The position numbers and the translations under genes are program-made. The notes under the pieces were generated by a model. That model was not told the origin of the DNA and searched no databases. It saw only the letters and a list, made by a program, of their open reading frames with translations. 32,000 nt of DNA, from positions 346,043 through 378,042 of the forward strand of contig JAXMBK010000009.1 in NCBI GenBank assembly GCA_046349935.1, read 5' to 3'. The first letter of the stretch is position 1; each line of letters opens with the position of its first letter. This DNA is from Pirellulales bacterium (GTDB taxonomy: Bacteria > Planctomycetota > Planctomycetia > Pirellulales > Pirellulaceae). Positions 7,767 through 27,827 of the stretch are shown here, in pieces.

Positions 7767-9634
7767 GGGTTGTTGAGACGGCGGTCGAGCTGGTCGGTCA
7801 GTTGCTGAATCACGGGCGTCCCCGGGAGCGTGGACTGACGCGACTTCGCGAGCGCCTGTCGTGCCTCTTCCATTCGCCCTAACTGTTGCAAACTCCAGGC
7901 CTCGAACACAAACGCATTCGGCAGCCAGGGACGCCGTCGACCGCTCTTCTGAAACAGTTCGAAGGCTCGCTGAGCGTCCCCTTGGTTGAGATAGGCGCGC
8001 CCCAGCGCATCGACTAGATCGTCGACTTTGGATTTATTGTCCAGCTTCGCAAACGTAATCAGCTCCGCGTCGCCGAGCGGCTGCGAGAGCCGTTCGATCT
8101 CCGCCTCCAGTCGAGTTCGATGTTGAGCCGCATCGACGGCCCGGTTGAACGGCGGCACGTCGTAGAGAAAGTAGGCCAACGCATGCGCGGCGACGGCGTC
8201 TTCAGCGAGTGCATCGAGCCAAGCGGCGCGTTCCGTCGTCGAGGGCGCCCGAGCTTCGTCCCACGCGTCGTCCTTCGACTCTTCCATGATCGCCTGCGCG
8301 ATGCTCCGCGCGATCAGCCAGTGGCCTTCCAGCGTGAGATGCACATGCTCCAAGAAAAACCGGCTGCCTGCCGCACGCGGGGCGGACGCCGTTTCAAAAA
8401 CGGCCGGCACATCGACGTACATCGCACCTGACTCGGCGGCCACTCGACGGTCGATCTCGCGAAATGACGAAGGAGCTCGATAACGACACGGATCTTCATC
8501 CCGCGCCCGCACGAACGCTGCACGCGATTCGTCGTAACGCTCCAGTCGTTCCAGACACTCCCCTCGTCGATAGTGCAGCACTGCGTTCGCGGGATCTCGC
8601 TTGAGCGCCGCGTCGACCTGCGTCGCGGCCTCCGTCCAGCGGTTTTGCCGAAACGCCTCCTCGATTTGCGAAAGCGACTTCTTGGTCGCAGCCGCGGCAG
8701 CCGAGTCGGGCGATTCGTAGGCCAATGGACTGTGGTCGCGGAGATTGGAGGCGACGCTACAGAGCACCAACTTTACGTTCGCGCGACGGCAGATCGACGC
8801 GATTTCGCGCAGTCGCCGTTCGTAGGTCGCCTCCACCTCGCGCACCCACGGGTGATCGGAGGGAATCTCCAATTGCTTCGGGAGTCGCGAGACCAGTTCC
8901 CCGCCGGCGGCCTCTTGTTCGCCGCCCCAGCCGCGCGCCAAGACCTGCGGCAGACGATACCGGCGGGCCATCATCCCCAGGCGACTGAGCGTCGCATTCG
9001 ACGCCACGCCTCCGACGCCGTAAAACTCGTTGTGCCCCGCGTAAACGACTAGGATGTCGGGCTGAGCCGCCAGCGATTGCCGAACCAGATCCACCAAGGG
9101 GAGGCTGCTAATGCCGACGATGCCCGCATTGAGCACCTCGACTTGACGGGCCGGCTGCTGCGTCTCGAGCGCCATCTCCAGCTGACGGGGAAACGCGAGT
9201 TCCGATGAATGGGGATACCCCTGCACCGACGACTCGCCCAGCACCACGATGCGCAACAAGCCTGCCGGCTTCGGCAAAACAAACCCTCGCGGCTCGGGTC
9301 CCCGCAAATCGGCCGCGCAATAGGCTCGATCAACGTCTGGGTTCAAGTAATACGTCGGCGTCGGTCCACGCGTCGACGGCACAACGAGCCGCGTGTCGAC
9401 GCCGATTCCCAACGCATACAGGACGACATTGGCGAAGAACATCGCGCACAAGGGAAATGCCAACGCGAGCGCGCGAAAGATGCCCGTCCGGCGTCGCGAG
9501 CGGCGCACCACCGCCCCGCTCGACTCTGATGCGCTGCCTCTCGCATCCGACTCGACTTCGGTTCGGCTCGTGGTCGCTTTGCGACGCCCATCCTCGCGCG
9601 CCCCCGCCGCCTGACGGCGACTGGGGCGTGCCAT
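7763..9634 (-). CDS. SGNH/GDSL-like hydrolase domain protein with C-terminal TPR repeats, N-terminal membrane anchor
   Basis: ORF 7763..9832; I prefer ATG 9634 (MARPSRRQ..., then the TM segment IFRALALAFPLCAMFFANVVLYALGI). SGNH-like blocks are VVLGESSVQGYP, VYAGHNEFYG and FFLEHVHLTLEGHWLIA. TPR-like helices lie toward the C-terminus. The longer N-terminal extension would run through the 54-bp repeat. Confidence 0.7.
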   Translation of the reverse strand: MARPSRRQAAGAREDGRRKATTSRTEVESDARGSASESSGAVVRRSRRRTGIFRALALAFPLCAMFFANVVLYALGIGVDTRLVVPSTRGPTPTYYLNPDVDRAYCAADLRGPEPRGFVLPKPAGLLRIVVLGESSVQGYPHSSELAFPRQLEMALETQQPARQVEVLNAGIVGISSLPLVDLVRQSLAAQPDILVVYAGHNEFYGVGGVASNATLSRLGMMARRYRLPQVLARGWGGEQEAAGGELVSRLPKQLEIPSDHPWVREVEATYERRLREIASICRRANVKLVLCSVASNLRDHSPLAYESPDSAAAAATKKSLSQIEEAFRQNRWTEAATQVDAALKRDPANAVLHYRRGECLERLERYDESRAAFVRARDEDPCRYRAPSSFREIDRRVAAESGAMYVDVPAVFETASAPRAAGSRFFLEHVHLTLEGHWLIARSIAQAIMEESKDDAWDEARAPSTTERAAWLDALAEDAVAAHALAYFLYDVPPFNRAVDAAQHRTRLEAEIERLSQPLGDAELITFAKLDNKSKVDDLVDALGRAYLNQGDAQRAFELFQKSGRRRPWLPNAFVFEAWSLQQLGRMEEARQALAKSRQSTLPGTPVIQQLTDQLDRRLNNP

Positions 9635-9750
9635 GGAGAAAACTCCCGAATGATTCCGCCGCCTGCTGCGGCCGCTCGCCCACGCGCTAATCGTCGACGT
9701 TCGGCAGCCGCTGCTTCTGCTGGAGCCCCAGGATAGACCAACCGTGCGCA

Positions 9751-9804
9751 GCGAAAAGGTGGGTGAGCGGAATGTAATGCGGGGAGGGTGACAGGCTGGA
9801 AGCC
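9751..9804. repeat. Left copy of a perfect 54-bp direct repeat flanking the IS remnant
   Basis: GCGAAAAGGTGGGTGAGCGGAATGTAATGCGGGGAGGGTGACAGGCTGGAAGCC is identical to 11300-11353. The flanking bases differ on both sides. Confidence 0.95.
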
Positions 9805-11299
9805 AATTCCGTTCGGCACGAAATTTGCGCATTAGGCGGAGGTAGTCTCAAACCCTGCCAAAATGGCGTGACACCATGCCGAAGAAGACGAATGCTGCGC
9901 CGGTCGGTGAATCTTCCTCAACGAAGATCAGGGCCAGTGACCTGAAGAACTTACGCGACTTGAAGGCGATTTCCAAGTCCTGGAACGTCTTCGTCCGGTC
10001 GGAGCGGAGCGAGACGCAGCTGGCAATCGCCAGCTGTACATGAATGATTACTGCTTGCTCGTGCTGCTCTGGCTCTTCAACCCGATCGTAGATTCGCTGC
10101 GAGGCCTGCAGCAGGCCGGCGACTTGGACGTCGTTCGCAAGCGGTTGGGGGTGGGGCGAGCTTCGCTGGAAGCCTGTCGAATCGGTGTCGATATTCGACC
10201 CAGGCCGCTCCAAGCCATCGTGGAGGAGTGGAGCGAAAAGCTGCCGATGCGGGTTCCGACGGGTTGGCCCCGTCGACAAGCAGGTCACAGCGGTCGATGG
10301 TTCCGTGTTCCGCGCGTTCTGACGCAAATCGCCAAACTGGCATGGATTCGGGCAAGCAAGGCAAGTCGACCTGCGGATACCGCATACACCCAATTCGAGG
10401 TGTTCCGCGGTTTTCCGAATAAGATCCAATTCACTCCTGCCAAGCCGAAGGGAGAGGCGGATGAACGAGTTGTCCTTGAGAAGTCGGTGGAAGCAGGACG
10501 CTGCTATCTGATGGATCGTGGTTACGAGAAGTACGCCTTGTGGAACGCCATTCAACACGCAGGCAGCGACTATGTCTGCCGCATTCGAGACAACCCTGTC
10601 TACAAGGTGTTGCGGGACGTACCGTTGAGCGACCAAGCCCGCGAGGACCAAGTCGTCAGCGACCAAATCGTCCAATTTGGCGGTGAGGATACGCGTACGG
10701 TGTTGCCCGACCACGAAACGCGGCTTGTCATCGTCAAGGTCAAACCCCGCACGATGTCGCAGTCGCAAGAACGCCCAACATGGCCCCAGTTGCGGCGGTT
10801 ATCTTCGTATAGCGACCAACAATCTGTCGATTCCCGCCGAACTGGTCGCAGCCCTCTATTCTCTGCGTTGGACGATTGAACTCTTCTTTCGCCTGATCAA
10901 ACAACTGCTCGGCTGTCGCCATCTCCTCAGCTTCAAGGAGAACGGGGTGACGATCCAGATCTACATGGCGATCATCGCCTGCATCATGATTCTGAGCTAC
11001 ACGGGCAAAATGCCGACGAAGCGGACTTACGAAATGATCTGCTTCTACCTCATGGGATGGGCGTCAATCAGCGAGTTAGAGGCCCACATCCTCAAACTCA
11101 ACGCGGTAAAAACGTAGCCGCACTGCGCGCTCGAGGTGCTCGGTACGGCAAACCGGGCAAATGCCGCCACAGCAGGAAAACACTGTCAAAACACGCTGCT
11201 ACCCCTCTGGTGCATAGTTCCCAATCAATGCCGCCGCCGACGTTGCGGCTTTGAAAGGGCGATCGCGAACACGCCCAGCTACTCTCGACCGACATCAAT
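9805..11299 (+). mobile_element. Decayed IS4-superfamily insertion sequence (1495 bp between the direct repeats)
   Basis: It holds a DDE transposase reading frame broken into several frames. The size is typical for an IS. I could not identify terminal inverted repeats by eye. Confidence 0.75.
9876..11117 (+). pseudogene. IS4-family (DDE_Tnp_1) transposase, multiply frameshifted
   Basis: The recognisable pieces lie in different frames. They are MPKK...(stop 10041), LLVLLWLFNPIVDSLRGLQQAGDL, KQVTAVDGSVFRA (first D, then stop 10320), YLMDRGYEKYALWNAIQHAGSDYVCRIRDN (second D), and LRIATNNLSIPAELVAALYSLRWTIELFFRLIKQLLGCRHL (E, in ORF 10677..11117). At least three or four frame switches are needed to join them. 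Confidence 0.8.
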
Positions 11300-11353
11300 G
11301 CGAAAAGGTGGGTGAGCGGAATGTAATGCGGGGAGGGTGACAGGCTGGAAGCC
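11300..11353. repeat. Right copy of the perfect 54-bp direct repeat
   Basis: Identical to 9751-9804. This copy continues into an intact palindrome, ACAGGCT-GGA-AGCCTGT (11340-11356). Confidence 0.95.
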
Positions 11354-11356
11354 TGT
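11340..11356 (-). terminator. 7-bp stem / 3-nt loop hairpin 1 nt after the sulfatase stop codon (REP-like or terminator-like, no U tract)
   Basis: ACAGGCT GGA AGCCTGT on the + strand, so the loop is UCC on the minus-strand transcript. The stop codon lies at 11358-11360. Confidence 0.3.
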
Positions 11357-11357
11357 T

Positions 11358-13289
11358 CTACGGGGAGAGGACTTCGACTTTGCCTGGGAAACGTGCGGGG
11401 ACGCCGTAATCGGCGACCGGCGCGCCGTCGTCGTGACCGATGCAGAAGTTTTCCTTGGGTTGACGAGATAGGAGGCCCAGGGCAGCGGCGGCGACCTGCG
11501 GAGCGTCGCCGATGCGGAGGGTCATTTGACCGTCGGCGGCGAGCGACGCTTCGATCGTTTGCGGAGCGTCGCTGCCGCGCCATTCCGACTCGACGCGTCG
11601 CAGCTCGCCCCGATCACGCACCACAAACGTCGCACGGCCGTCCTTCAAGTAGACTGCGTACCCGACTAAAGATCCTCCGTGCGCCACAACGACGCCTTGA
11701 GCGTCGCTGGCCGCCGTTACTCGACAACGCAACTTCCAGGGACGTTCGGCGACCTGCGGCGCGGCGATCCCCGCCCCTTTCGCAGCCGGCGCTGGTTTGG
11801 CCGAGGGAATCGTCGGGTACAACGTCGTAGGATAGGCAGCCACGCCGGCAGGTCGTCGCGCCTTCGGCAAACTCCCGCCGATCTCGGCGTTCATCCGCTC
11901 CGCCAACGCCTGCAACCGCGCCACGATCTCGGGATGTTGCTCTGAGACGTCCGTGCGTTCGCCGATCTCGGCGTCCAAGTTGTAAAGTCGCGGGTTCTTG
12001 CGGGCGTCTGCAGCCGCTTCCTTCCCCATCGTCTCCGGCTGCGTCGCTAGCGCCAACTTCCATGGCCCCTGCCGCACGGCTTGCAGGTTGTAGCCCGCAA
12101 AATAATAGTGGGCCTCGCGCGGCGACTCGGAGCTGAGTCCCATCAAGAGGGGCGTGAGGTCGCGTCCATCGAGGATCGGCTCCGCCGGCAGTTGGCCCCC
12201 CGCCAGCTTCACGGCCGTCGGCAGAATATCGATCGTCCCAGTCACCGCATCACACACCGACCCCGGGGCAATCTTCCCCGGCCACCAGGCGATCGTCGGC
12301 ACTCGCACGCCCCCTTCCCACGTGCTCCCCTTGCCGCCGCGCAGCGGCAAGGCGCTGCCGCCGTCGGCGCCCTTGATGAGCCACGGCCCGTTGTCGCTTG
12401 TGAACAGCACCAACGTGCGCTCTTCGAGCTTCAGTTCGCGCAGCGTGTCGAGGATTCGGCCGACCGACCAGTCCACCTCCTCGACCCAGTCGCCGAACCG
12501 CCCGTTGTTCGACCGGCCGCGAAATTTCTCGCCTGGCCAGATCGGCGTGTGCACGGCCGAATGCGGCAAATACAGCAAGAATGGCTGCCGAACATGGTCG
12601 CGGATGAACGTCTCCGCCGCTTCCGTGTACCGCTCCACCAATCGGCTTTGCTGCTCGTCGCGCAGCAACTCCACCACCTTCTCGTCGCGCAACAGCGGCG
12701 CCACCATTTCGCCCGTACTCGCCGACTTCCGCTGCATGTCGTTCGAGTAGGGAATGCCGAAGTAGTGATCGAACCCCTGTCTCGTCGGCAGAAATTCGAA
12801 CTGATCGCCGACGTGCCACTTGCCAACGCACATCGTCGCATAGCCCAGCGGCTTGAGCCGTTCGGCGATCGTCGTTTCATCAGGGTGCAGCCCCTGCGCT
12901 GAACCGGGGCCGAACACGCCCGGCACCGACACTCGAGCCCCATAACAGCCGGTCAGCAACTGAGCGCGCGACACGGAACAGACCGGCGCCGCGTAGAACG
13001 AAGTGAGCTTCATGCCTTCGCGCGCCATGCGATCCAGGTGAGGCGTGCGTTGCTTCGTCGCACCGAACGGCCCGATGTCGGCATACCCGAGATCATCGAT
13101 GAACACGACGACGATGTTGGGACGCTCGGCATTCTGCCGAAGACTTGACTGGCCGTCGGCGGCGCAGACCGCCGAAGACGCCCTTCCCTGGCTGGCGAGA
13201 AACAGCACGATGAGAAGAGCCAGTCGCCCGCGAGCCGCTCGAGTTCGCCTTCGCAAATCGTTCATCGCCTCGCTCCCTTCGTGCCTCAC
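11358..13289 (-). CDS. Type I sulfatase with C-terminal beta-sandwich-like extension; non-canonical CSVSR active-site motif
   Basis: A signal peptide is present (alternative start MNDLRRR at 13265). Sulfatase blocks are PNIVVVFIDDLGYADIGPFG, FYAAPVCSVSRAQLLTGCY, GKWHVG and LVLFTSDNGPW. The roughly 150-aa C-terminal tail resembles the tail of the 16174 sulfatase. Confidence 0.9.
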   Translation of the reverse strand: MRHEGSEAMNDLRRRTRAARGRLALLIVLFLASQGRASSAVCAADGQSSLRQNAERPNIVVVFIDDLGYADIGPFGATKQRTPHLDRMAREGMKLTSFYAAPVCSVSRAQLLTGCYGARVSVPGVFGPGSAQGLHPDETTIAERLKPLGYATMCVGKWHVGDQFEFLPTRQGFDHYFGIPYSNDMQRKSASTGEMVAPLLRDEKVVELLRDEQQSRLVERYTEAAETFIRDHVRQPFLLYLPHSAVHTPIWPGEKFRGRSNNGRFGDWVEEVDWSVGRILDTLRELKLEERTLVLFTSDNGPWLIKGADGGSALPLRGGKGSTWEGGVRVPTIAWWPGKIAPGSVCDAVTGTIDILPTAVKLAGGQLPAEPILDGRDLTPLLMGLSSESPREAHYYFAGYNLQAVRQGPWKLALATQPETMGKEAAADARKNPRLYNLDAEIGERTDVSEQHPEIVARLQALAERMNAEIGGSLPKARRPAGVAAYPTTLYPTIPSAKPAPAAKGAGIAAPQVAERPWKLRCRVTAASDAQGVVVAHGGSLVGYAVYLKDGRATFVVRDRGELRRVESEWRGSDAPQTIEASLAADGQMTLRIGDAPQVAAAALGLLSRQPKENFCIGHDDGAPVADYGVPARFPGKVEVLSP

Positions 13290-18621: not shown

Positions 18622-19021
18622 GGTGGGCCCGCGCTGCGCTTGGCCCACCCTACCGCAGCCGCTTCGCCTGGCCGATTCTCGGAGGACTCTGTGATCTCGG
18701 TGGCCAATCATCCTGCGCATGGAAGGCTCTGAGGCGCATCTCACGGTGGGCCCGCGCTGCGCTTGGCCCACCCTACCGCAGCCGCTTCGCCTGGCCGATT
18801 CTCAGAGGACTCCGTGATCTCGGTGGCCAATCATCCTGCGTGTGGATTGCTCGGCGGCCCATCTCATGGTGGGCCCGCGCTGCGATTGGCCCACCCTACC
18901 GCAGCCGCTTCGCCTGGCCGATTCTCGGAGGACTCTGTGGTCTCGGTGGCCAATCATCCTGTGCGTGGAAGACTCTGAGGCGCATCTCATGGTGGGCCCG
19001 CGCAGCCCAGGCCCACCCTAC
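18622..19021. repeat. Tandem repeat, 123-bp unit x 3.25, each unit opening with the hairpin GGTGGGCC-N12-GGCCCACC
   Basis: Units start at 18622, 18745, 18868 and 18991 (the last is partial). The first ~95 nt of each unit are nearly identical and the last ~28 nt are more variable. The array fills the gap between the convergent genes ending at 18615 (+) and 19018 (-). Confidence 0.95.
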
Positions 19022-20193: not shown

Positions 20194-20352
20194 CGAGTCC
20201 GCCTCCTCGAGTCTGTGAGTCCAATTCGAGGCTGCCGCGCGCGCGAGCAGTCACGCGGTATTCAACCTTCGCCGGCAATTCCTCGCCAGCCCCAGCTTCG
20301 CCGTGCGACGTCTGGTAAACTCTTGAGATCCCCCCGCCGCGAGGTTGCCAGC

Positions 20353-23115
20353 GTGCCTCCTACGAACAATCCGAAACAGTATCAGCTTGAGTCGCAAGGC
20401 GTGCTCAGCGGCCCCTACACGGCGGCTCAATTGCGCGAGCTCGCCAAGGCGGGGCAGTTGCGACGCACCGACACGTTGTGGGATGTCAGCACCGGGACGC
20501 GTTTCGTCGCGGGAAATGTCGGCGGTCTGTTCCCCGACTCGCGACTTGCCCCGGTCGCAGCGCGCCCGTCCTCCTCGCCCACCGCGAGCCCCGCGGCGCC
20601 TGCCGCCGCACCGCCGCAGCCATCGCCGCCGCAGACATCGCCGCCGCAGACATCGCCGCCGCAGACATCGCCGCCGAGGCCGACGGCCGCGGCGACCGCG
20701 CCGGCCCCCGCTGCGCCTCCGCTCACGGCCGTCATGGTGCGCGACGTCTTTATCTCGTACGCATCGCGCGACCAACCAATCGCGCACGAGATCTGTGAAC
20801 GGCTGGAGTCGGAGGGACTTTGTTGTTGGATCGCGCCGCGCGACATCGTGCCCGGCAGCGAATACGCTGAAGCGATCATCGATGGGATTGAATCGAGTCG
20901 CTTGATGGTCGTGGTCCATTCGTCGGCCGCCAACGACTCGCCGCACGTGCTCCGCGAAGTCGAGCGGGCGGTCAGCAAGGGGATCACGGTGATTCCGTTC
21001 CGCATTGAAAACGTGAAGCCGAAGAAGTCGCTCGAGTTCTTCCTGAGCGCTCCGCATTGGCTCGACGCCTTCACGCCTCCGTTCGAGGACCATTTGCAGC
21101 GACTGCGGGAGGTGGTTCAATCGGCGCTCGCCAATGCGGCGCATCAAACGTCCTTGCCGAACGGTCCGACGAACGCAGCCTCTCGTGCGGCTAGCCCCGT
21201 CAACCACCGATCGTCGCGCAGGCCGCAAGGCGCGTGGCTGGCCGCGCTTCGCCGTTTGCCCTGGTATTGCCTCCCCAGCGCGGCGGGTGCGCTCGCCTTG
21301 CTGCTCGGAGTCTGGTTGCTCGCCGCCTGGCTGCGTCCTGATCCGCTCGAGTCGGAATTTGTGGATTACCAGCGGAATGTGACGGTCGGCAACGGCTCGG
21401 TCGTCTTTCTCAACAAGCACGCTCCGAACCGCTACTCGGCGTGGCGACGACTGGCGGACGAGGGCAATCCGGTCGCGCAGCTATTCGTCGGTCGCTGCTA
21501 TCAAGAAGGCATCGTGGTGCCGGAGAATCAGGAGACGGCCATCGAGTGGCTCAGGAAGTCGGCAGCACGCGAAAACTCGTACGCGATGGTGGCGATCGGT
21601 TTGGCGCATGAAGAGGGGCAAGGCGTTCCGAAAAACAATTCGGAAGCGCTGCATTGGTTCACTCAGGCCGCCAATCTGGGCAATCACACGGCCATGCGGA
21701 ATATGGCGTCTTTGTATGCCGACGGATTGCAAGGCGCGCCCGATCCCCAAGCAGCCTTTGAGTGGCATCGGCGCGGAGCGGCCGCGGGGAACCCGTACTG
21801 CATGCGCAAGTTGGGCGATTACTATGCACTCGGACAAAACGTCGCGATCGACAAGGCCGAATCGGAAAAGTGGTACGACAAGGCCGTCGCCGCCGGCGAT
21901 CGTTATCTCATGGGCAAACGCATGGGGAACGAATTCGCCAAACACTTTGCGGCGTACTTGGCCCCCAAGGCGACGTCCGAAGCGAAGGCCGCGGCAGTCG
22001 CCGCCCTGAACGCACGGCTCGACGAGTTCCGCGAGTTAGAACTGAGCAGCGTCGGTCCCTTCTACTCGGATTCCGAGTTCAATACGTCGACGACCGGCAT
22101 CGACGACTTGCCCGCCGACGATCCGTTGCGCGAGGTTCAAGACGCCATGTCGACGCGTTACATCGAATTGTTCTCGCAGGCCTCGATGCGGGAGAAGGTG
22201 GAATACACCTCCGGGTTTTCGATGGCGACGGAATCGCGAGTTCGTCGGTTGCATGCCGCCGCCCAGTACGCGGAGATCGTGGACTTCTGGAGTCGCTGCT
22301 ATCGAGACCTGCCTTTCGCGAAACTGCGGAAGACCGACGAGTGGAATAGCTTGGTGGCGCAGTTGCGCATGAGCGTCACGGCGTTGCTGAAGCACGGCCA
22401 GCGGCCGGAGGCTGAATCGGTGATCGCGTCGACGCTCGAACTGTGCGACGCCGTCCTCAAAGACCGTCCCTGGGACTGGTATCTGAAGGACGCATACACC
22501 GGTTTTTGCTTCGAAACGGCCGATGTGTGGTTCGAATTAGGCGAACCGCAAGCCGTGCAGCCGCTGCTGCTCCGCAGTTGGACCGTGCGGTTCCGTCAGT
22601 TCGGAAAGGACGAATTGCTCGCACGCTACCAAAACAATCTGCCGCGCAAGGGACAGTCGCCGCCGAACGCGACCGACGACGACAAAAAGTTCTTCGAGCG
22701 ATTTGCGACGGCCAAGGAGGGAGAGCCGAAGCCCAATTCGGGCATGACGCGATTTACGATCCCGGCCGACTTTTCGGGCAAGGAGTACCCCTTCCACGTC
22801 TACCTCCTCACAGGCCCGCGGGGATACCAAGAACTTCAAGACCAGTTGCGTTGGGTGGAAGAAGTGCGCGGCGGCACGATCCCGAAAAAAATCCGCGAAT
22901 CGTTCCTGAAGCTCAATCAAATCGCCGCTCAAAACAACGTCGATTTCATGGAGCTCACCGTGTACGCGCTCGGCGCCGCGAATCAGGACGGCGAGAAGAA
23001 GGGCGAGGCGGGAGACGACCCCTTTGGGGACGCGACGGCGGCCGCGAGCGCTGTTGACGCCAAGTCGGATTACAAAGATAAGGCGACGAATCCGGCGTTC
23101 AAGGAAAAGAATTGA
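20353..23115 (+). CDS. GYF_2-like / Pro-rich linker / TIR domain / single TM / Sel1-like repeats / unknown C-terminal region protein
   Basis: I prefer GTG 20353, with GAGG 8 nt upstream and no in-frame ATG before the TIR. The GYF-like segment is YQLESQGVLSGPYTAAQLRELAKAGQLRRTDTLWDVSTGTRF. The TIR domain reads VFISYASRDQPIAHEICERLESEGLCCWIAPRDIVPGSEYAEAIIDGIESSRLMVVVHSSAANDSPHVLREVERAVSKGITVIPF. The TM segment is WYCLPSAAGALALLLGVWLLAAWL. Sel1-type repeats include AQLFVGRCYQEGIVVPENQETAIEWLRKSA and VAIGLAHEEGQGVPKNNSEALHWFTQAA. Confidence 0.85.
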   Translation: MPPTNNPKQYQLESQGVLSGPYTAAQLRELAKAGQLRRTDTLWDVSTGTRFVAGNVGGLFPDSRLAPVAARPSSSPTASPAAPAAAPPQPSPPQTSPPQTSPPQTSPPRPTAAATAPAPAAPPLTAVMVRDVFISYASRDQPIAHEICERLESEGLCCWIAPRDIVPGSEYAEAIIDGIESSRLMVVVHSSAANDSPHVLREVERAVSKGITVIPFRIENVKPKKSLEFFLSAPHWLDAFTPPFEDHLQRLREVVQSALANAAHQTSLPNGPTNAASRAASPVNHRSSRRPQGAWLAALRRLPWYCLPSAAGALALLLGVWLLAAWLRPDPLESEFVDYQRNVTVGNGSVVFLNKHAPNRYSAWRRLADEGNPVAQLFVGRCYQEGIVVPENQETAIEWLRKSAARENSYAMVAIGLAHEEGQGVPKNNSEALHWFTQAANLGNHTAMRNMASLYADGLQGAPDPQAAFEWHRRGAAAGNPYCMRKLGDYYALGQNVAIDKAESEKWYDKAVAAGDRYLMGKRMGNEFAKHFAAYLAPKATSEAKAAAVAALNARLDEFRELELSSVGPFYSDSEFNTSTTGIDDLPADDPLREVQDAMSTRYIELFSQASMREKVEYTSGFSMATESRVRRLHAAAQYAEIVDFWSRCYRDLPFAKLRKTDEWNSLVAQLRMSVTALLKHGQRPEAESVIASTLELCDAVLKDRPWDWYLKDAYTGFCFETADVWFELGEPQAVQPLLLRSWTVRFRQFGKDELLARYQNNLPRKGQSPPNATDDDKKFFERFATAKEGEPKPNSGMTRFTIPADFSGKEYPFHVYLLTGPRGYQELQDQLRWVEEVRGGTIPKKIRESFLKLNQIAAQNNVDFMELTVYALGAANQDGEKKGEAGDDPFGDATAAASAVDAKSDYKDKATNPAFKEKN

Positions 23116-23188
23116 CCCAGCGCCGCGAATCCTCCCTCCTTTCTCGCGACCGCTTCCGACGCGACGGTCCACCCTGGAGTTTGCACGT

Positions 23189-23473
23189 ATGTCGAATTAC
23201 GTCCCGCGACCGCTCGACACGTCCCACATACGATTGCCCGAGACGCTCGCCGGTCTGCTCGAAAAGCTGGCGGAAAACACCCATGACGTCTGGGCGGCGC
23301 AGCGCATCAGCGACGGCTGGACCTACGGTCCGCAGCGTGACGACGCCGCGAAGAAACATCCGAGCCTCGTGCCGTATCACGAATTGTCCGAGTCAGAGAA
23401 GGCGTACGACCGCAATACGGCGGCCGAAACCATCAAGGTGCTGCTGGCGCTTGGATTCCGCATTGGAGAGTGA
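23189..23473 (+). CDS. Stand-alone RyR (ryanodine-receptor repeat) domain protein, 94 aa
   Basis: ATG 23189 with GGAG 8 nt upstream. LAENTHDVWAAQRISDGWTYGPQRDDAAKKHPSLVPYHELSESEKAYDRNTAAETIKVLLALGFRI fits the bacterial RyR-domain pattern (H..W...GW.YG....K.HP.LVPY.EL...EK..DR). Confidence 0.8.
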   Translation: MSNYVPRPLDTSHIRLPETLAGLLEKLAENTHDVWAAQRISDGWTYGPQRDDAAKKHPSLVPYHELSESEKAYDRNTAAETIKVLLALGFRIGE

Positions 23474-23476
23474 CGC

Positions 23477-25408
23477 ATGCCCGAACCTCGCCGCACCAAT
23501 CGCTCGACCCTCCTGCAAAAGCTGTCTCGCCGTGGACTCGCCACCGTCATCGGGACGCTCGCGATCACCATCGCCGTGACCGGCCTGAGCGGCTACTACT
23601 GGCAACACTATCACAAGGGATCGAATCACGATTGGACCGTTCCCATTTTGAAGACGGTGCAGTTGTACGTGCTGGAAGTCGGCGACGACAACGACTACAC
23701 GCACGGCAGCAATTACCTGCTCATGGTCGCGCGCCTCTGCGCCTCCGTTTTGTTCCTGGTCGTCTCTTGGACCGTGATTGCCAACGTTCTGGAAGAAGTC
23801 CGTCGGCTCCCGCGGCACCTCACGCGCCGCCGGCACGTCATCCTCTGCGGCTTGGGACAGATCGGCCTGCAGTTGCTCGACGATCTTCGCACTCGGGGAA
23901 CGGCCGATGAGACGGTGATCATCGACCCGCGCGCCGATCATCCTTGGTTCGACTATGCGCGCAACCTCGGCGCCACCGTGATCGTCGGCGACGCGACGCG
24001 CGCCGAAACGCTGCTCGAAGCGCGTGCTCTTCACGCGCGCGAGCTGTTCATCGTCACGGGGGACGACGGCGTGAATCTGGAGGTGGCGGCCGAATTGGGA
24101 AGTTTGTTTTCCCAGGAGCAAACTCGGCGCACGGCGGACGACAAACTGCACGTTTACGTCCATATCGTCGACACCAATTTGGCCGCGACGCTCCGTCCCT
24201 TCGGCGAAGTCCTGCATGACTCAGCCGACATGGATGTGAATGTCTTTAACGTTCCGCGCGCCGCCGCGGCGCGGTTGGTTGCGCAGCAGATCTGGCCGCA
24301 TGCCCCTACGTCGCCCGCCGAGGTGGCCCACTTCGTCATCGTCGGCTTCGGCGACATGGGCCAAGCCCTCGCCATCCAACTCGCGCACCTGGGCCACTTC
24401 CCCAACCACAAGCGTTCTCGCATGACGATCGCGGATCGCAAGATGCACGACTTGGCGGCCGAGTTTCTGGGGCGTTTTCCGCGATTTACCGCCTGGGAAG
24501 ACTACAAGTCGCCGGGCGTCTCTTCGTTTTCCTCCGCTGCGGACGCCTGGGATTGGAATGAACATCCCCTGCCGCCGCCGCTCCGCTCGACGTCGCCCGA
24601 GGCCGTGCAGTATGCGTGTAATGCGGAGTTCGTGGAGTTGGCGTCGGGGCGCGGCGACCAGTTGTTCGCGCATCGCTTGGCAGCACACTTTTCCGAGACG
24701 GGAGTGAAGCCGGTCATCTTCGTCTGCGGCCAACAGGATCACGACAATTTTGAAACGGCCGTGCAGTTGCGCGACCAACTGCTGCACCTCGGCCAGGCCA
24801 ATGTACCCATCTTCGTCTGGTTGCCGCGTCAACCCGCGCTCGCCGAAACGCTGGCCCGCGCCGAGGACGGGCGACTGCGTCCTTTCGGCGAGTGTCGGGC
24901 TTCCGCGAGCTACAACGAGATTACGAATCCCTTGCGCGAGTCGTTAGGGCGCCGCATTCATGCCAGCTACGTGGGGACCATGCCTCCTGGTTCCGTGAAC
25001 GAGGCGGCGCGTCCCTGGAACGAACTTCGCGACGACTTCCGTGAATCGAATCGCGCGTCGGCCGATCACCTGATCATCAAGCTCGCGGCGCTCGGATACG
25101 TCCTCCAGCCGGGAGATTCCTCCGAACGGCTGGACGTGGACCAACTGCCGGAACACTTGGCCTGGCAGCTAGCGGAGATGGAACATAATCGCTGGATGGC
25201 CGAACGACTCTTGGCCGGCTGGCGTCACGCCCCACGGCCCGACTCGCCAGAGGAAGCCGCGCGCAACAAACTGCGCAAGCACAACCACAACCTGGTCGCC
25301 TGGACGCACCTGGGCGACCAACGCCTTCGCGACCTCCAACAAGTCCGCACGGCCCTCGCCGAGTGTCAATTGCAAGGCTACTGCCTGCACCGCAGCGGCT
25401 CGGCCTGA
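23477..25408 (+). CDS. Membrane protein: 2 predicted TM helices + two TrkA-N/RCK Rossmann modules + C-terminal RyR-like pair
   Basis: It starts 3 nt after the previous stop. TM segments are LATVIGTLAITIAVTGLSGYYW and LLMVARLCASVLFLVVSWTVIANVL. GxGxxG motifs are HVILCGLGQIGLQLLDDL and HFVIVGFGDMGQALAIQLA. The C-terminus has IHASYVG...RPWNELRDDFRESNRASADHLIIKLAALGYVL and LAEMEHNRWMAERLLAGWRHAP...KHNHNLVAWTHLGD. I see no TVGYG-type K+ filter. Confidence 0.8.
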   Translation: MPEPRRTNRSTLLQKLSRRGLATVIGTLAITIAVTGLSGYYWQHYHKGSNHDWTVPILKTVQLYVLEVGDDNDYTHGSNYLLMVARLCASVLFLVVSWTVIANVLEEVRRLPRHLTRRRHVILCGLGQIGLQLLDDLRTRGTADETVIIDPRADHPWFDYARNLGATVIVGDATRAETLLEARALHARELFIVTGDDGVNLEVAAELGSLFSQEQTRRTADDKLHVYVHIVDTNLAATLRPFGEVLHDSADMDVNVFNVPRAAAARLVAQQIWPHAPTSPAEVAHFVIVGFGDMGQALAIQLAHLGHFPNHKRSRMTIADRKMHDLAAEFLGRFPRFTAWEDYKSPGVSSFSSAADAWDWNEHPLPPPLRSTSPEAVQYACNAEFVELASGRGDQLFAHRLAAHFSETGVKPVIFVCGQQDHDNFETAVQLRDQLLHLGQANVPIFVWLPRQPALAETLARAEDGRLRPFGECRASASYNEITNPLRESLGRRIHASYVGTMPPGSVNEAARPWNELRDDFRESNRASADHLIIKLAALGYVLQPGDSSERLDVDQLPEHLAWQLAEMEHNRWMAERLLAGWRHAPRPDSPEEAARNKLRKHNHNLVAWTHLGDQRLRDLQQVRTALAECQLQGYCLHRSGSA

Positions 25409-26087: not shown

Positions 26088-27827
26088 ATGCTCCGTCTTC
26101 GCCCGACCTCGCTGCTGCACCTCGTCGTTGCGTTTACGAGCGTCTGGTCGGCATCCGCCGCCGCACAATCCGCCGCCGCCGAAAAACACGTTCCGCGGAA
26201 ACCGAATGTTCTCTTGATCTGCGTCGACGACTTGAAGCCGGCGCTCCGTTGCTACGGCGATTCACTCGCGCATACCCCGAACTTGGATCGGTTGGCCCAA
26301 CGAGGCGTGCTGTTTGAGCGTGCGTATTGCAACCAGGCCGTCTGTTCGCCGTCGCGCAACGCGCTGCTCACCGGACTCCGCCCCCAGACGCTCGGCATCT
26401 ACGACCTTCCCACGCATTTCCGTCGCGCGGCGCCTGACGCACACACGATCGGACAACACTTTCGCGCGCAGGGGTATCGCACCGAGTCGCTCGGCAAGAT
26501 CTTCCATGTCGGACACGGCAATCAAGATGACGCGGCTTCGTGGAGCGTCCCGTCATGGAAGCCCAAGGGCAAAGGGTACGCTCTTCCCGAGAATCAAGCG
26601 CCGCCAGGCAATAAGGCGCAGGACGCCGATTGGCGCGGGGCAGCCTACGAGTCGGCTGAAGTACCTGACAGCTTCTACGGCGACGGACAAATCGCCGACG
26701 AAGCCATCCGGCGACTGCAGGTCGCTGGGGAGAAGCCCGACGAACCCTTTCTCCTGGCAGTCGGTTTTCTCAAGCCGCACCTTCCGTTCGTGGCGCCGAA
26801 AAAGTACTGGGATCTTCATCCGCTCGCAAAGTTTTCGGTCGCGGCCGTTCGCAACCCGCCGCAAGGCGCGCCAACCTACGCACCGCAATTCGGCGGAGAA
26901 CTACGGCAGTACAAGGACGTACCAACAGGCCCGCTCGCCGACCTTTGGCAACAGACGCTCATCCAGGGCTACTACGCCGCCGTCAGCTACATGGACGCCC
27001 AGCTCGGTCGAGTCCTCGATGAACTTGACCGACTTCAACTAACCGACGACACGATTATCGTCCTCTGGGGCGACCATGGTTGGCACCTCGGCGATCATGG
27101 CATGTGGTGCAAGCATACGAACTACGAGCAAGCGGCGCGCATCCCGCTGATCGTGGCGGCGCCCGCGGGTGCCCGTGCAGCCCGTTCGTCGGCGCTGGTC
27201 GAAACGGTCGATCTTTTTCCAACTCTCGCTCAGCTCGCCGACCTTCCCGCCCCGGCGCAAATCGACGGCCGGAGTTTCGCGAGTCTCCTCACTCGCCCCG
27301 ACGCTGCGCATCGCGATCACGTCATTCACGTCTACCCGCGCAGCGTCAAGGAGCGGGGCCAGGTGCTGGGACGCGCGATCCGTACAGAGCGCTACCGCTT
27401 GGTGGAATGGAAGGCGTTCGACGATCCAACGGGGAAGGTCGACTACGAGTTGTACGACTACCAGTCTGATCCGCTCGAGACGAGAAACCTGTACCACGAC
27501 CAGCCCGAGGCCGCTGCGCCGCTTCGAGCTTTGCTCGCTCAACACCCGCCCGCCAAACCGCAGGTGTCCGGTGCGGCGAAGAAACAGGCATCGAAAAAGG
27601 CCGACTCGAAGGACGCCGCTCCAAAACCGGCTGCCGAGCCAGATCGCAACGCTCTCTTCGACCGCCGCGACAAAGACCGCGACGGCAAGCTCACTCGCGA
27701 CGAATTCCTCGTCAACCAACCCGACCCTGATGAGGCCCCCGCTCGCTTCCACCGCTTCGACGCTGACGGAGACGGGGTCCTCAGTCGTCAAGAATTCGTG
27801 AACCCAGTGCCGGCGAAGCGTCCCTGA
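26088..27827 (+). CDS. Type I sulfatase (iduronate-2-sulfatase-like) with Lys/Ala/Pro linker and C-terminal EF-hand pair
   Basis: A signal peptide is present. Sulfatase blocks are PNVLLICVDDLKPALRCYGD, NQAVCSPSRNALLTGLRP and IIVLWGDHGWHLGDHG. The C-terminus has DKDRDGKLTRDE and DADGDGVLSRQE, both canonical 12-residue EF loops. Confidence 0.9.
   Translation: MLRLRPTSLLHLVVAFTSVWSASAAAQSAAAEKHVPRKPNVLLICVDDLKPALRCYGDSLAHTPNLDRLAQRGVLFERAYCNQAVCSPSRNALLTGLRPQTLGIYDLPTHFRRAAPDAHTIGQHFRAQGYRTESLGKIFHVGHGNQDDAASWSVPSWKPKGKGYALPENQAPPGNKAQDADWRGAAYESAEVPDSFYGDGQIADEAIRRLQVAGEKPDEPFLLAVGFLKPHLPFVAPKKYWDLHPLAKFSVAAVRNPPQGAPTYAPQFGGELRQYKDVPTGPLADLWQQTLIQGYYAAVSYMDAQLGRVLDELDRLQLTDDTIIVLWGDHGWHLGDHGMWCKHTNYEQAARIPLIVAAPAGARAARSSALVETVDLFPTLAQLADLPAPAQIDGRSFASLLTRPDAAHRDHVIHVYPRSVKERGQVLGRAIRTERYRLVEWKAFDDPTGKVDYELYDYQSDPLETRNLYHDQPEAAAPLRALLAQHPPAKPQVSGAAKKQASKKADSKDAAPKPAAEPDRNALFDRRDKDRDGKLTRDEFLVNQPDPDEAPARFHRFDADGDGVLSRQEFVNPVPAKRP

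Follow-up and report, generated by a model that had tools for sequence, protein, structure and literature searches.

What would a bacterium do with a TIR-domain protein whose gene is followed directly by two genes for proteins with ryanodine receptor-type (RyR) domains, one of them a membrane protein? This question is raised by a three-gene cluster at positions 20353-25408 of a 32,000-nucleotide stretch of DNA (the window) from a Pirellulales bacterium (GenBank assembly GCA_046349935.1, contig JAXMBK010000009.1, positions 346,043 to 378,042). The genes are termed A, B and C here, and all positions are those of the window unless a locus is named. A first-pass annotation, made from the letters alone, had proposed that the TIR protein generates a signal derived from nicotinamide adenine dinucleotide (NAD+) and that the membrane protein is a nucleotide-gated effector. 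The computational follow-up led us to regard as rather probable a Thoeris-like, NAD-derived signalling module, in which the product of the TIR domain would gate an RyR-sensing cation channel (C) and B would buffer or degrade the signal. The gene cluster itself was confirmed, and the in-silico tests that were available supported the first-pass interpretation. The observations underneath this reading are the domain architecture of the three proteins, the residues that they conserve, the structural class to which C belongs and a recurrent linkage of TIR and RyR genes. In the literature searched, no description of this combination of parts was found, and it would add to TIR-based signalling a sensor domain and a channel effector that are both new.

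The three genes were co-directional, and the strand, gaps and protein lengths given in the first-pass annotation agreed with the list of open reading frames (ORFs):

20353-23115, + strand: gene A, 920 aa, with a GTG start inside the ORF 20215-23115
23116-23188, + strand: spacer between A and B, 73 nt, without a terminator-like site
23189-23473, + strand: gene B, 94 aa, a stand-alone RyR repeat of the Repeat12 (R12) type
23477-25408, + strand: gene C, 643 aa, a GsuK-like pore-loop channel with two transmembrane helices (2TM), tandem RCK modules and a C-terminal pair of RyR repeats

The start of A at 20353 was supported by an independent public gene call (P0186, 99% identical to A), which starts at the same residue. 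Only 3 nt separate the stop of B from the start of C, and a GGAG motif lies 9 nt upstream of the ATG of C, within the 3' end of B; to judge from the sequence, B and C are translationally coupled. A scan of the cluster for promoters and terminators gave nothing beyond the shuffled expectation, so that the operon structure is supported by spacing and strand only.

Gene C was analysed with Pfam and with an AlphaFold2 (AF2) model (predicted local distance difference test, pLDDT, 84.5; predicted template modelling score, pTM, 0.79), from which the following parts were assigned:

23510-23821, + strand: pore module with transmembrane helix (TM) 1 (aa 12-46), a re-entrant pore helix (aa 54-64) and TM2 (aa 80-115) in the AF2 model
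23837-24286, + strand: RCK1/TrkA_N Rossmann module (Pfam 5e-18) with the motif GLGQIG; its beta2 ends in an acidic residue
24323-24904, + strand: RCK2-like Rossmann module with the motif GFGDMG (F420_oxidored 1.4e-5) and a beta-alpha-beta pattern in the AF2 model
24914-25396, + strand: tandem RyR-type repeats (aa 480-640), an R12-like pseudo-dimer with AF2 helices at aa 486-538 and 559-632

The two TM helices and two GxGxxG modules that had been read from the sequence were borne out by AF2 and Pfam together (TrkA_N at aa 121-223, second Rossmann match at aa 287-330), and the model added a short re-entrant helix between the TMs that was absent from the first-pass annotation. NCBIfam gave generic Trk/Kef matches only. 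Among 20 relatives of C, the glycines of both GxGxxG motifs (G125/G127/G130 and G290/G292/G295) were invariant, and the acidic residue after beta2 was kept in at least 90% of sequences (E150 in RCK1, D320 in RCK2). Since both motifs and acidic residues are conserved, the RCK modules of C may also bind a nucleotide.

A Foldseek search of the C model against the PDB returned GsuK first (E 4e-9, including an entry titled 'GsuK channel bound to NAD'), followed by TrkA rings, MthK (5e-7), Slo1/BK and the CASTOR gating ring. The C family profile aligned to residues 22-195 of MthK, which comprise the whole pore and the start of the RCK domain (E 4e-8). On the basis of the model, C looks like a pore-loop channel of the RCK-gated class. 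It resembles GsuK and MthK (PDB 4gx0/4gx2/4gx5 and 1lnq) in the order TM1, pore helix, TM2 and RCK, in the retained GxGxxG motifs and, as in GsuK, in having two RCK modules per subunit. In contrast to these channels, it lacks the TVGYGD filter, carries an extra C-terminal RyR pair and is coupled to TIR-like genes. The filter-like loop of C reads LEVGDDND, with LLNSGAEDD as the family consensus and L66 and G69 invariant. In the alignment of the family profile to MthK, the MthK filter TVGYGD lay opposite NSGAED of the family consensus and EVGDDN of C. The K+ filter T-V-G-Y-G was thus not matched, only its first glycine (G69) being retained. This replacement makes K+ selectivity of C unlikely, and the acidic character of the loop suggests a non-selective or divalent-permeable cation pore.

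The C-terminal RyR-like pair of the first-pass annotation was recovered most clearly at the family level: a profile of the 20 relatives matched solved RyR R12 structures with an E of 4.6e-13, and many relatives of C passed the Pfam RyR cut-off. In the AF2 model of C, the helical repeats occupied aa 486-545 and aa 559-639. E569, H570, R572 and W573 of the second repeat were invariant, and D619 was kept in at least 90% of sequences. Of the proposed nucleotide-gated RCK-RyR effector, the general idea stands, with one shift: as the putative reader of the TIR product, the RyR pair is now preferred to the RCK Rossmann folds.

The first-pass annotation had suggested testing whether TIR genes are enriched near homologues of B and C. 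We took 74 loci with C relatives from contigs representing one genome per species; they spanned Planctomycetota, Verrucomicrobiota, Kiritimatiellia, Acidobacteria, Alpha-, Gamma- and Deltaproteobacteria, Bacteroidales, Treponema and several archaeal phyla. Partner genes were counted on stop-to-stop ORFs, because greedy gene calling missed C in 7 high-GC loci, and with iterated hidden Markov models of TIR and DUF4062, because single-sequence phmmer with the TIR of the window undercounted (17/74 loci). A TIR_2 or DUF4062 gene was found in 33 of the 74 loci and within 1.5 kb of C in 28, the DUF4062 model still missing cases such as L007 and L008 (L and P numbers denote loci and proteins of our surveys). 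Where at least 3 kb was available on both sides (n=39), such a gene was adjacent in 19 loci and present anywhere in 23. The density of TIR-like ORFs per 10 kb fell steeply with distance, from 1.73 within 1.5 kb of C to 0.48, 0.29, 0.35 and finally 0.17 at 7.5-10 kb, and 28 of the 33 TIR-like ORFs within 1.5 kb were on the same strand as C. Enrichment of TIR genes near C homologues was therefore present, in bacteria and in archaea.

The partners differed in architecture. TIR genes directly beside C matched the window TIR with phmmer E values of 1e-37 to 1e-53 in four alphaproteobacterial metagenome-assembled genomes (MAGs), a Thermoplasmatota archaeon, a Thorarchaeote and a Methanoregulaceae archaeon. 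DUF4062-NACHT/STAND-WD40 or -TPR proteins were encoded immediately downstream of C in six loci (L026, L028, L030, L056, L063, L065), and other TIR partners were TIR_2-kinase-WD40 (L003, L004) and TIR_2-NB-ARC-TPR proteins (L002, L030). Four alphaproteobacterial loci (L035, L038, L039, L059; about positions 7900-13200) shared an operon-like triplet of a DUF4231 protein (667-685 aa), a C relative and a TIR-TM protein. DUF4231, which we take to belong to the SLATT clan, may be a second membrane effector in these triplets.

The small protein B was confirmed as a stand-alone RyR-domain protein, as first annotated: the Pfam family RyR (PF02026) matched it from end to end (1.9e-37; 127.8 bits, cut-off 27.4). 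It aligned to aa 850-940 (repeat 1) of rabbit RyR1 with 86 bits and approximately 55% identity. Residues H32/W35/H57/D74 of B are spaced identically to H75/W78/H100/D117 of the phage protein RyDEP. RyDEP is a glycosidase for 2'/3' cyclic ADP-ribose (2'/3'cADPR), in which these residues form the catalytic dyad and the contacts to the ligand (Lopez Rivera et al., May 2026, PMC13232231). In the small RyR proteins encoded beside C relatives, H32, W35, K71, D74 and R75 were kept in 21/21 and H57 in 18/21. Other phage RyR proteins are nanomolar sponges (PMC13232231), and the sponge RyR-Tad binds 3'cADPR (Kd 43 nM), 2'cADPR and cADPR (bioRxiv 10.64898/2026.06.04.730250). The phage sponges, too, keep the dyad, so that B may be either a sponge or a glycosidase. 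B was also considered as a prophage-derived anti-Thoeris gene, and this was rejected: there were no phage genes nearby, many genomes keep B beside C, and no more than 3 nt part the stop of B from the start of C. Searches of PHROGs gave families of unknown function only. B thus shares with RyDEP and RyR-Tad the stand-alone PF02026 domain, a similar size and the H/W/H/D pocket spacing, whereas it is chromosomal, conserved beside cellular channel and TIR genes and free of phage context; its proposed role would be host-side buffering or switch-off of the signal and not immune evasion.

The linkage was seen again when the search was seeded with B. Among 76 loci from metagenome contigs, 32 were at least 5 kb long, and 19 of these 32 contained a TIR_2 or DUF4062 gene, mostly within 3 kb and on the same strand, many less than 130 nt away. 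A C-like gene was present in 3/32. Across the C- and B-seeded loci, large proteins with a C-terminal RyR domain comprised the RCK channel, RelA_SpoT-RyR, AAA/nSTAND5-RyR and Ser/Thr kinase-TPR-TPR-S-RyR proteins. The alarmone-synthetase-like RelA_SpoT proteins with a C-terminal RyR were found in four TIR/DUF4062 loci (L060 11719-14277, L099 4975-7953, L146 5005-7908 and L162 5075-8116), and that of L060 also contains TPR and a prokaryotic TRPM-type SLOG domain (LSDAT_prok). AAA/nSTAND5 NTPases with one or two C-terminal RyR domains were recurrent neighbours of C relatives, of small RyR genes and of TIR-like genes (L033, L037, L070, L071, L126, L134 and L165). A Ser/Thr kinase that carries TPR and TPR-S and ends in a full-length RyR domain (E 1.2e-35) was encoded directly upstream of a TIR gene (L152 5265-8276). 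One binding domain placed on swappable effectors beside signal-making enzymes is the pattern of the SLOG, SAVED, CARF and Macro sensors. By analogy, RyR behaves as a shared second-messenger sensor domain would.

The closest relatives showed the same company of genes. Two C relatives (P0006 and P0011), 56-57% identical to C, lay inside TIR/DUF4062/STAND/NUDIX clusters, each with a small RyR gene. The P0006 locus encoded LysR, small RyR, DUF4062+TIR_2, C, TIR_2-STAND, TIR_2, DUF4062-TPR and TIR-STAND, with NUDIX-TCAD9-TPR-S upstream; the P0011 locus encoded TIR_2-NB-ARC, LysR, a 146-aa protein, NUDIX-TCAD9-TPR-S, small RyR and C. Clear homologues of A, B and C occurred together on one planctomycete contig (L087), which carries the A homologue P0196 and the C relative P0003 in the order NUDIX-TCAD9-TPR-S, small RyR, 67-aa gene, A homologue, C homologue, TIR_2, TIR_2. 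The A-B-C combination has thus been kept at 43-57% identity, although its genes stand in another order. A planctomycete module of LysR, the 146-aa protein, NUDIX-TCAD9-TPR-S (approximately 914 aa), small RyR, in some cases TIR, and C recurred in L079, L081, L087, L001 and L018. No Pfam domain was found in the 146-aa protein. The NUDIX enzyme of this module would fit a turnover of ADP-ribose (ADPR).

The presumed source of the signal, A, was resolved by Pfam, hydropathy and an AF2 model (pLDDT 78.9) into a GYF-like domain, a Pro-rich linker, the TIR domain (aa 130-265), a disordered stretch, a TM helix, a Sel1/TPR solenoid and DUF2610:

20404-20481, + strand: weak GYF_2 match (aa 18-43) in a small beta-rich N-terminal domain (aa 9-52; AF2 strands, pLDDT 83-90)
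20542-20733, + strand: disordered Pro-rich linker (aa 64-127) with three SPPQT units (AF2 pLDDT <50)
20746-21105, + strand: TIR_2 domain (aa 132-251) of the subfamily CWIAPRD / REVERA / HWLDA (Pfam 1.9e-23)
20956-20958, + strand: codon of E202 in HVLREVE, at the position where NAD-cleaving TIR domains have their catalytic Glu
21265-21336, + strand: single TM helix (aa 305-328 by hydropathy scan; AF2 helix at aa 304-327)
21349-22632, + strand: all-alpha Sel1/TPR-like solenoid (aa 333-760; Pfam Sel1 1e-29), a presumed extracytoplasmic sensor
22744-22986, + strand: DUF2610 alpha/beta domain (aa 798-878; Pfam 4e-22) with AF2 strands at aa 798-819 and helices, pLDDT about 90

Of the Pfam domains that the first-pass annotation had named for profile searches, TIR_2 (83.7 bits against a cut-off of 28) and Sel1 (four repeats) were upheld in A, and GYF_2 only weakly (E 0.0029, below cut-off); GYF_2 is precomputed for several homologues of A. 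GYF domains bind Pro-rich peptides, and the SPPQT linker of A comes directly after the GYF-like domain. P0186 differs from A by a 10-residue deletion in this linker, equal to two SPPQT units, and by two substitutions; judged by these two sequences, the repeat number is polymorphic. The glutamate that the first-pass annotation had placed at codon 20956-20958 was exactly right and is E202. It was invariant across 15 full-length A homologues (TIR-Sel1-DUF2610, with or without GYF_2; 40-49% identity), and a glutamate at the catalytic position was kept in 46/46 aligned TIR domains from loci with C relatives.

A single TM helix puts the TIR and Sel1 parts of A on opposite sides of the membrane. NAD+ is cytoplasmic, and for this reason the TIR domain was placed inside. 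The model of A would accordingly have the topology of a Toll-like receptor, with a cytoplasmic TIR and with Sel1/DUF2610 outside. The top Foldseek matches of the A model were secreted or periplasmic Sel1-repeat proteins; the matches comprised Sel1/TPR proteins only and gave no clue to the sensed trigger. The wider subfamily of A-type TIR domains (CWIAPRD, REVERA, HWLDA) is joined to many different ectodomain-like parts. Two genes resembling those of extracytoplasmic function (ECF) sigma factors flank one A homologue (TIR-Sel1-DUF2610; L088 6388-9759) that has neither B nor C in its vicinity, a context that hints at a different output for the A-type receptor family.

The literature searched bore out the first-pass statement that a pairing of TIR with RyR or RCK proteins is absent from the described systems, a targeted search included, and an earlier in-silico mention is possible in Burroughs et al. 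2015 or Burroughs & Aravind 2020. Thoeris systems of types I-XI with 29 putative effector classes have been listed (Yirmiya et al., bioRxiv 10.64898/2025.12.03.692087), and RyR and TrkA were unmentioned in its text and in the parts of its tables that we covered. The preprints on RyDEP and RyR-Tad concern viral proteins and describe no cellular RyR effectors, and neither the DUF4062 papers nor Kaur et al. 2020 (TCAD domains) mention RyR or TrkA. The cluster resembles Thoeris in its TIR domain with a catalytic Glu, in its operon-like arrangement with a putative ligand-binding, membrane-acting partner and in an adjacency conserved across taxa; several Thoeris effectors are likewise membrane proteins (types II, V, VI, VII and X). 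It differs in that the sensor is an R12-type RyR domain and not SLOG, Macro, DUF2270, DUF6650, SLATT or another known type, in its pore-loop channel with tandem RCK, in its third, small RyR gene and in its 920-aa, receptor-like membrane TIR protein.

Among these systems, type X Thoeris (ThsB and the 'ion channel' ThsK; Bacillus sp. BH32 and B. cereus Q1) also pairs a TIR protein with a predicted ion-channel effector. Its TIR domains, however, are ThsB_TIR/DUF1863 (PF08937, cluster 2598792572), whereas that of A is TIR_2 and matched ThsB_TIR only with an E of 0.013 (16.3 bits, under the cut-off of 21.2). From adjacency, we infer that the type X effector in the B. cereus loci is a 222-aa multi-TM protein encoded 14 nt upstream of the TIR gene. 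No Pfam domain, RCK or RyR was found in this ThsK-like protein, and its BLASTP comparison with C gave an E of 0.2. A tblastn search of a plasmid collection with a type X TIR led in all inspected loci to type II systems (Macro effector). In the B. cereus-type loci (L083-L086), the presumed type X pair of the 222-aa multi-TM protein and ThsB_TIR lies immediately upstream of genes for an OLD-family ATPase, which is Gabija-like, and a UvrD helicase.

Two animal channels offer comparisons. The R12 repeat (R12/RY12) of ryanodine receptors is matched by B (to RyR1 repeat 1, as above) and by the pair in C as a two-repeat unit, and in both animals and bacteria the domain sits on a cation channel. To our knowledge, direct binding of cADPR to animal R12 is not established. 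The pores differ, being of the 2TM pore-loop type with RCK in the 643 aa of C and of the 6TM RyR/IP3R type in the approximately 5,000 aa of the animal receptors. R12 binds ADP/ATP and dantrolene, according to the abstracts of the studies concerned. TRPM2, which is gated by ADPR and has SLOG-like MHR1/2 and NUDT9H domains, is similar in concept, as a cation channel opened by a ligand of the ADP-ribose family, and has parallels in the fusion of LSDAT_prok to RyR in L060 and in the NUDIX genes of the planctomycete loci. Its pore and sensor are not homologous to those of C, and the likeness is an analogy only.

For the enzyme activity, the ligand, the direction of signalling, the gating, the ion selectivity and the biological role, we infer the following scheme. 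A trigger, received in A by the outward Sel1/DUF2610 part and in alternative partners by their STAND sensors, would activate the cytoplasmic TIR domain, probably by clustering, and the activated domain would cleave NAD+ to ADPR or a cADPR isomer. C would be the effector, probably a tetrameric cation channel of the GsuK/MthK pore-loop type without a K+ filter, with the two RCK modules and the R12-like RyR pair as its gating apparatus. The RyR pair would bind the TIR product, and the RCK Rossmann sites may additionally read NAD+/ADP. Opening of the pore would collapse ion gradients or admit cations, and growth arrest, abortive infection or a stress response would follow. B, as a soluble homodimeric RyR protein, would bind or hydrolyse the same signal and set a threshold or serve as an off-switch; it would be the host-side counterpart of phage RyDEP and RyR-Tad. 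The NUDIX genes of related loci would remove ADPR. By analogy, the phage RyR preprints of 2026 strengthen the idea of a TIR-RyR connection after the fact. C pairs with DUF4062 as well as with TIR_2, and the reported product of DUF4062 is linear ADPR; for this reason the ligand may be ADPR and not a cADPR isomer.

In the window, the cluster is flanked by sulfatases, a GH5-like gene, a FabA-like gene and a SnoaL-like gene, and this annotation agrees with the sulfatase and glycan genes first reported on both sides. The sulfatase-rich setting and the best relatives indicate a planctomycete, probably one of the Pirellulales. Three tandem 123-nt copies (93-95% identical) lie at 18622-19006, between a sulfatase gene (+ strand) and the GH5-like gene (- strand), and a sulfatase at 26088-27824 carries a C-terminal EF-hand pair.

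Several results weigh against the TIR-gated channel module. The Pfam RyR match of C itself (aa 558-637; 6e-6, 26.8 bits) was marginal, just under the cut-off of 27.4, and the pore was assigned from a monomer model whose filter loop has a pLDDT below 50 at aa 70-74. DUF4062, a TIR-like NADase (bioRxiv 10.64898/2026.05.01.722283, 2026), reportedly yields nothing but linear ADPR, so that the ligand may not be a cADPR isomer. By analogy with the ADP/ATP binding of animal R12, the RyR pair of C could read energy charge in place of a TIR product. About half of the full-flank C relatives had no TIR-like gene within 10 kb and stood amid housekeeping genes, the recurrent neighbours of these TIR-less loci being housekeeping only (BamB-like, SDR, thiolase, phosphoenolpyruvate (PEP) carboxylase, AcrB). 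Three of four sampled A homologues had no B or C nearby, one of them in a MAG that carries a C relative on another contig. On the possible defence function named in the first-pass annotation, the results point both ways: PADLOC did not call the locus (nothing for B or C, weak TIR matches only for A), and no defence or mobile-element genes were among the neighbours in the window, which is not a defence island, whereas the closest relatives do lie in clusters of TIR, DUF4062, STAND and NUDIX-TCAD9 genes. The TIR-less loci and the solitary A homologues would suit a cation or K+ channel with a housekeeping function that, like GsuK, responds to ordinary adenine nucleotides or to NAD(H), with B as an accessory nucleotide-binding subunit and the TIR gene as an incidental neighbour. 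The NAD+/ADP binding of GsuK (from PDB entry titles), the nucleotides reported for R12 and the sheer size of the C family (2,817 cluster representatives at E<=1e-30 among 1.84 billion proteins) are in keeping with this explanation. An incidental neighbour would not, however, be expected to be approximately tenfold enriched beside C relative to 7.5-10 kb, mostly co-directionally, in distant bacterial and archaeal phyla and with differing TIR architectures; nor would the linkage be expected to return from B seeds, or A, B and C homologues to be linked again in L087 at only 43-57% identity. We therefore consider the housekeeping explanation quite improbable.

It is also unlikely, in our view, that the TIR protein is its own effector and depletes NAD+ as a toxin in the manner of TIR-STING, TIR-SAVED or SARM1, with B as its antidote and C either secondary, its RCK modules sensing the loss of NAD+, or outside the system. 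B-seeded loci do contain a TIR-like gene far more often than a C-like gene (19/32 vs 3/32), DUF4062 partners are plain NADases (bioRxiv 10.64898/2026.05.01.722283), phage RyR proteins neutralise TIR products (PMC13232231; bioRxiv 10.64898/2026.06.04.730250) and the RCK Rossmann motifs of C are intact. An antidote alone, however, would not account for RyR domains fused to a channel, RelA/SpoT, AAA NTPases and a kinase, which is the pattern of a signal receptor, or for the translational coupling of B to C, and many of the partner TIR proteins have their own STAND, WD40 or TPR sensor parts, typical of signal generators. A different kind of alternative keeps the TIR product and the RyR channel and assigns them to physiological transmembrane signalling (envelope, surface or cell-cell) in place of anti-phage defence; we regard this as a minor but serious possibility. 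It draws on the Toll-like-receptor topology of A with its extracytoplasmic Sel1 solenoid, on the large Ig-repeat, SH3, peptidoglycan-binding, WD40 or FGE ectodomains of A-type TIR relatives, on the A homologue between ECF sigma-factor genes, and on a window without defence or mobile-element genes in which PADLOC was silent. On the other side, the partners of many C relatives are cytoplasmic STAND-type DUF4062/TIR sensors, and these relatives lie amid many conflict-system domains, NUDIX-TCAD9-TPR-S and nSTAND among them; the experimentally studied bacterial pairs of TIR signal and effector have so far all been anti-phage. If the TIR-gated channel mechanism holds, we see about equal odds for defence, against phages or by abortive infection, and for a role outside defence in envelope or stress signalling.

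Of special interest is the direct genomic link of TIR NADases with RyR-bearing ion channels in prokaryotes. For bacterial immunity, in which Thoeris systems are classified by their effectors, the module would add an RyR/R12 sensor, an RCK pore-loop channel without a K+ filter and a host signal-quenching partner, and the channel family concerned is large and uncharacterised (approximately 2,800 sequence clusters). For decades it has been disputed whether ryanodine receptors are a direct target of cADPR. With an RyR domain fused to a channel and linked to TIR NADases in bacteria and archaea, the question of a direct interaction between cADPR or ADPR and RyR becomes testable on a 643-aa channel and its 94-aa partner. 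More tentatively, we propose that the R12-type RyR domain may be an ancient cellular receptor for TIR-made ADP-ribose signals that directly gates a tetrameric cation channel in the C family and serves at least four effector classes (RCK channel, RelA/SpoT, AAA NTPases and kinase). If this were true, the cluster would represent a new Thoeris-like branch with a built-in off-switch, a host RyR glycosidase or sponge, and would provide a small, tractable model for the binding of cADPR or ADPR to the R12 domain of animal ryanodine receptors. The linkage also suggests where the eukaryotic R12 module originated, and the route from an NAD-derived nucleotide through an RyR domain to ion flux would then be a prokaryotic invention older than the animal ryanodine receptors.

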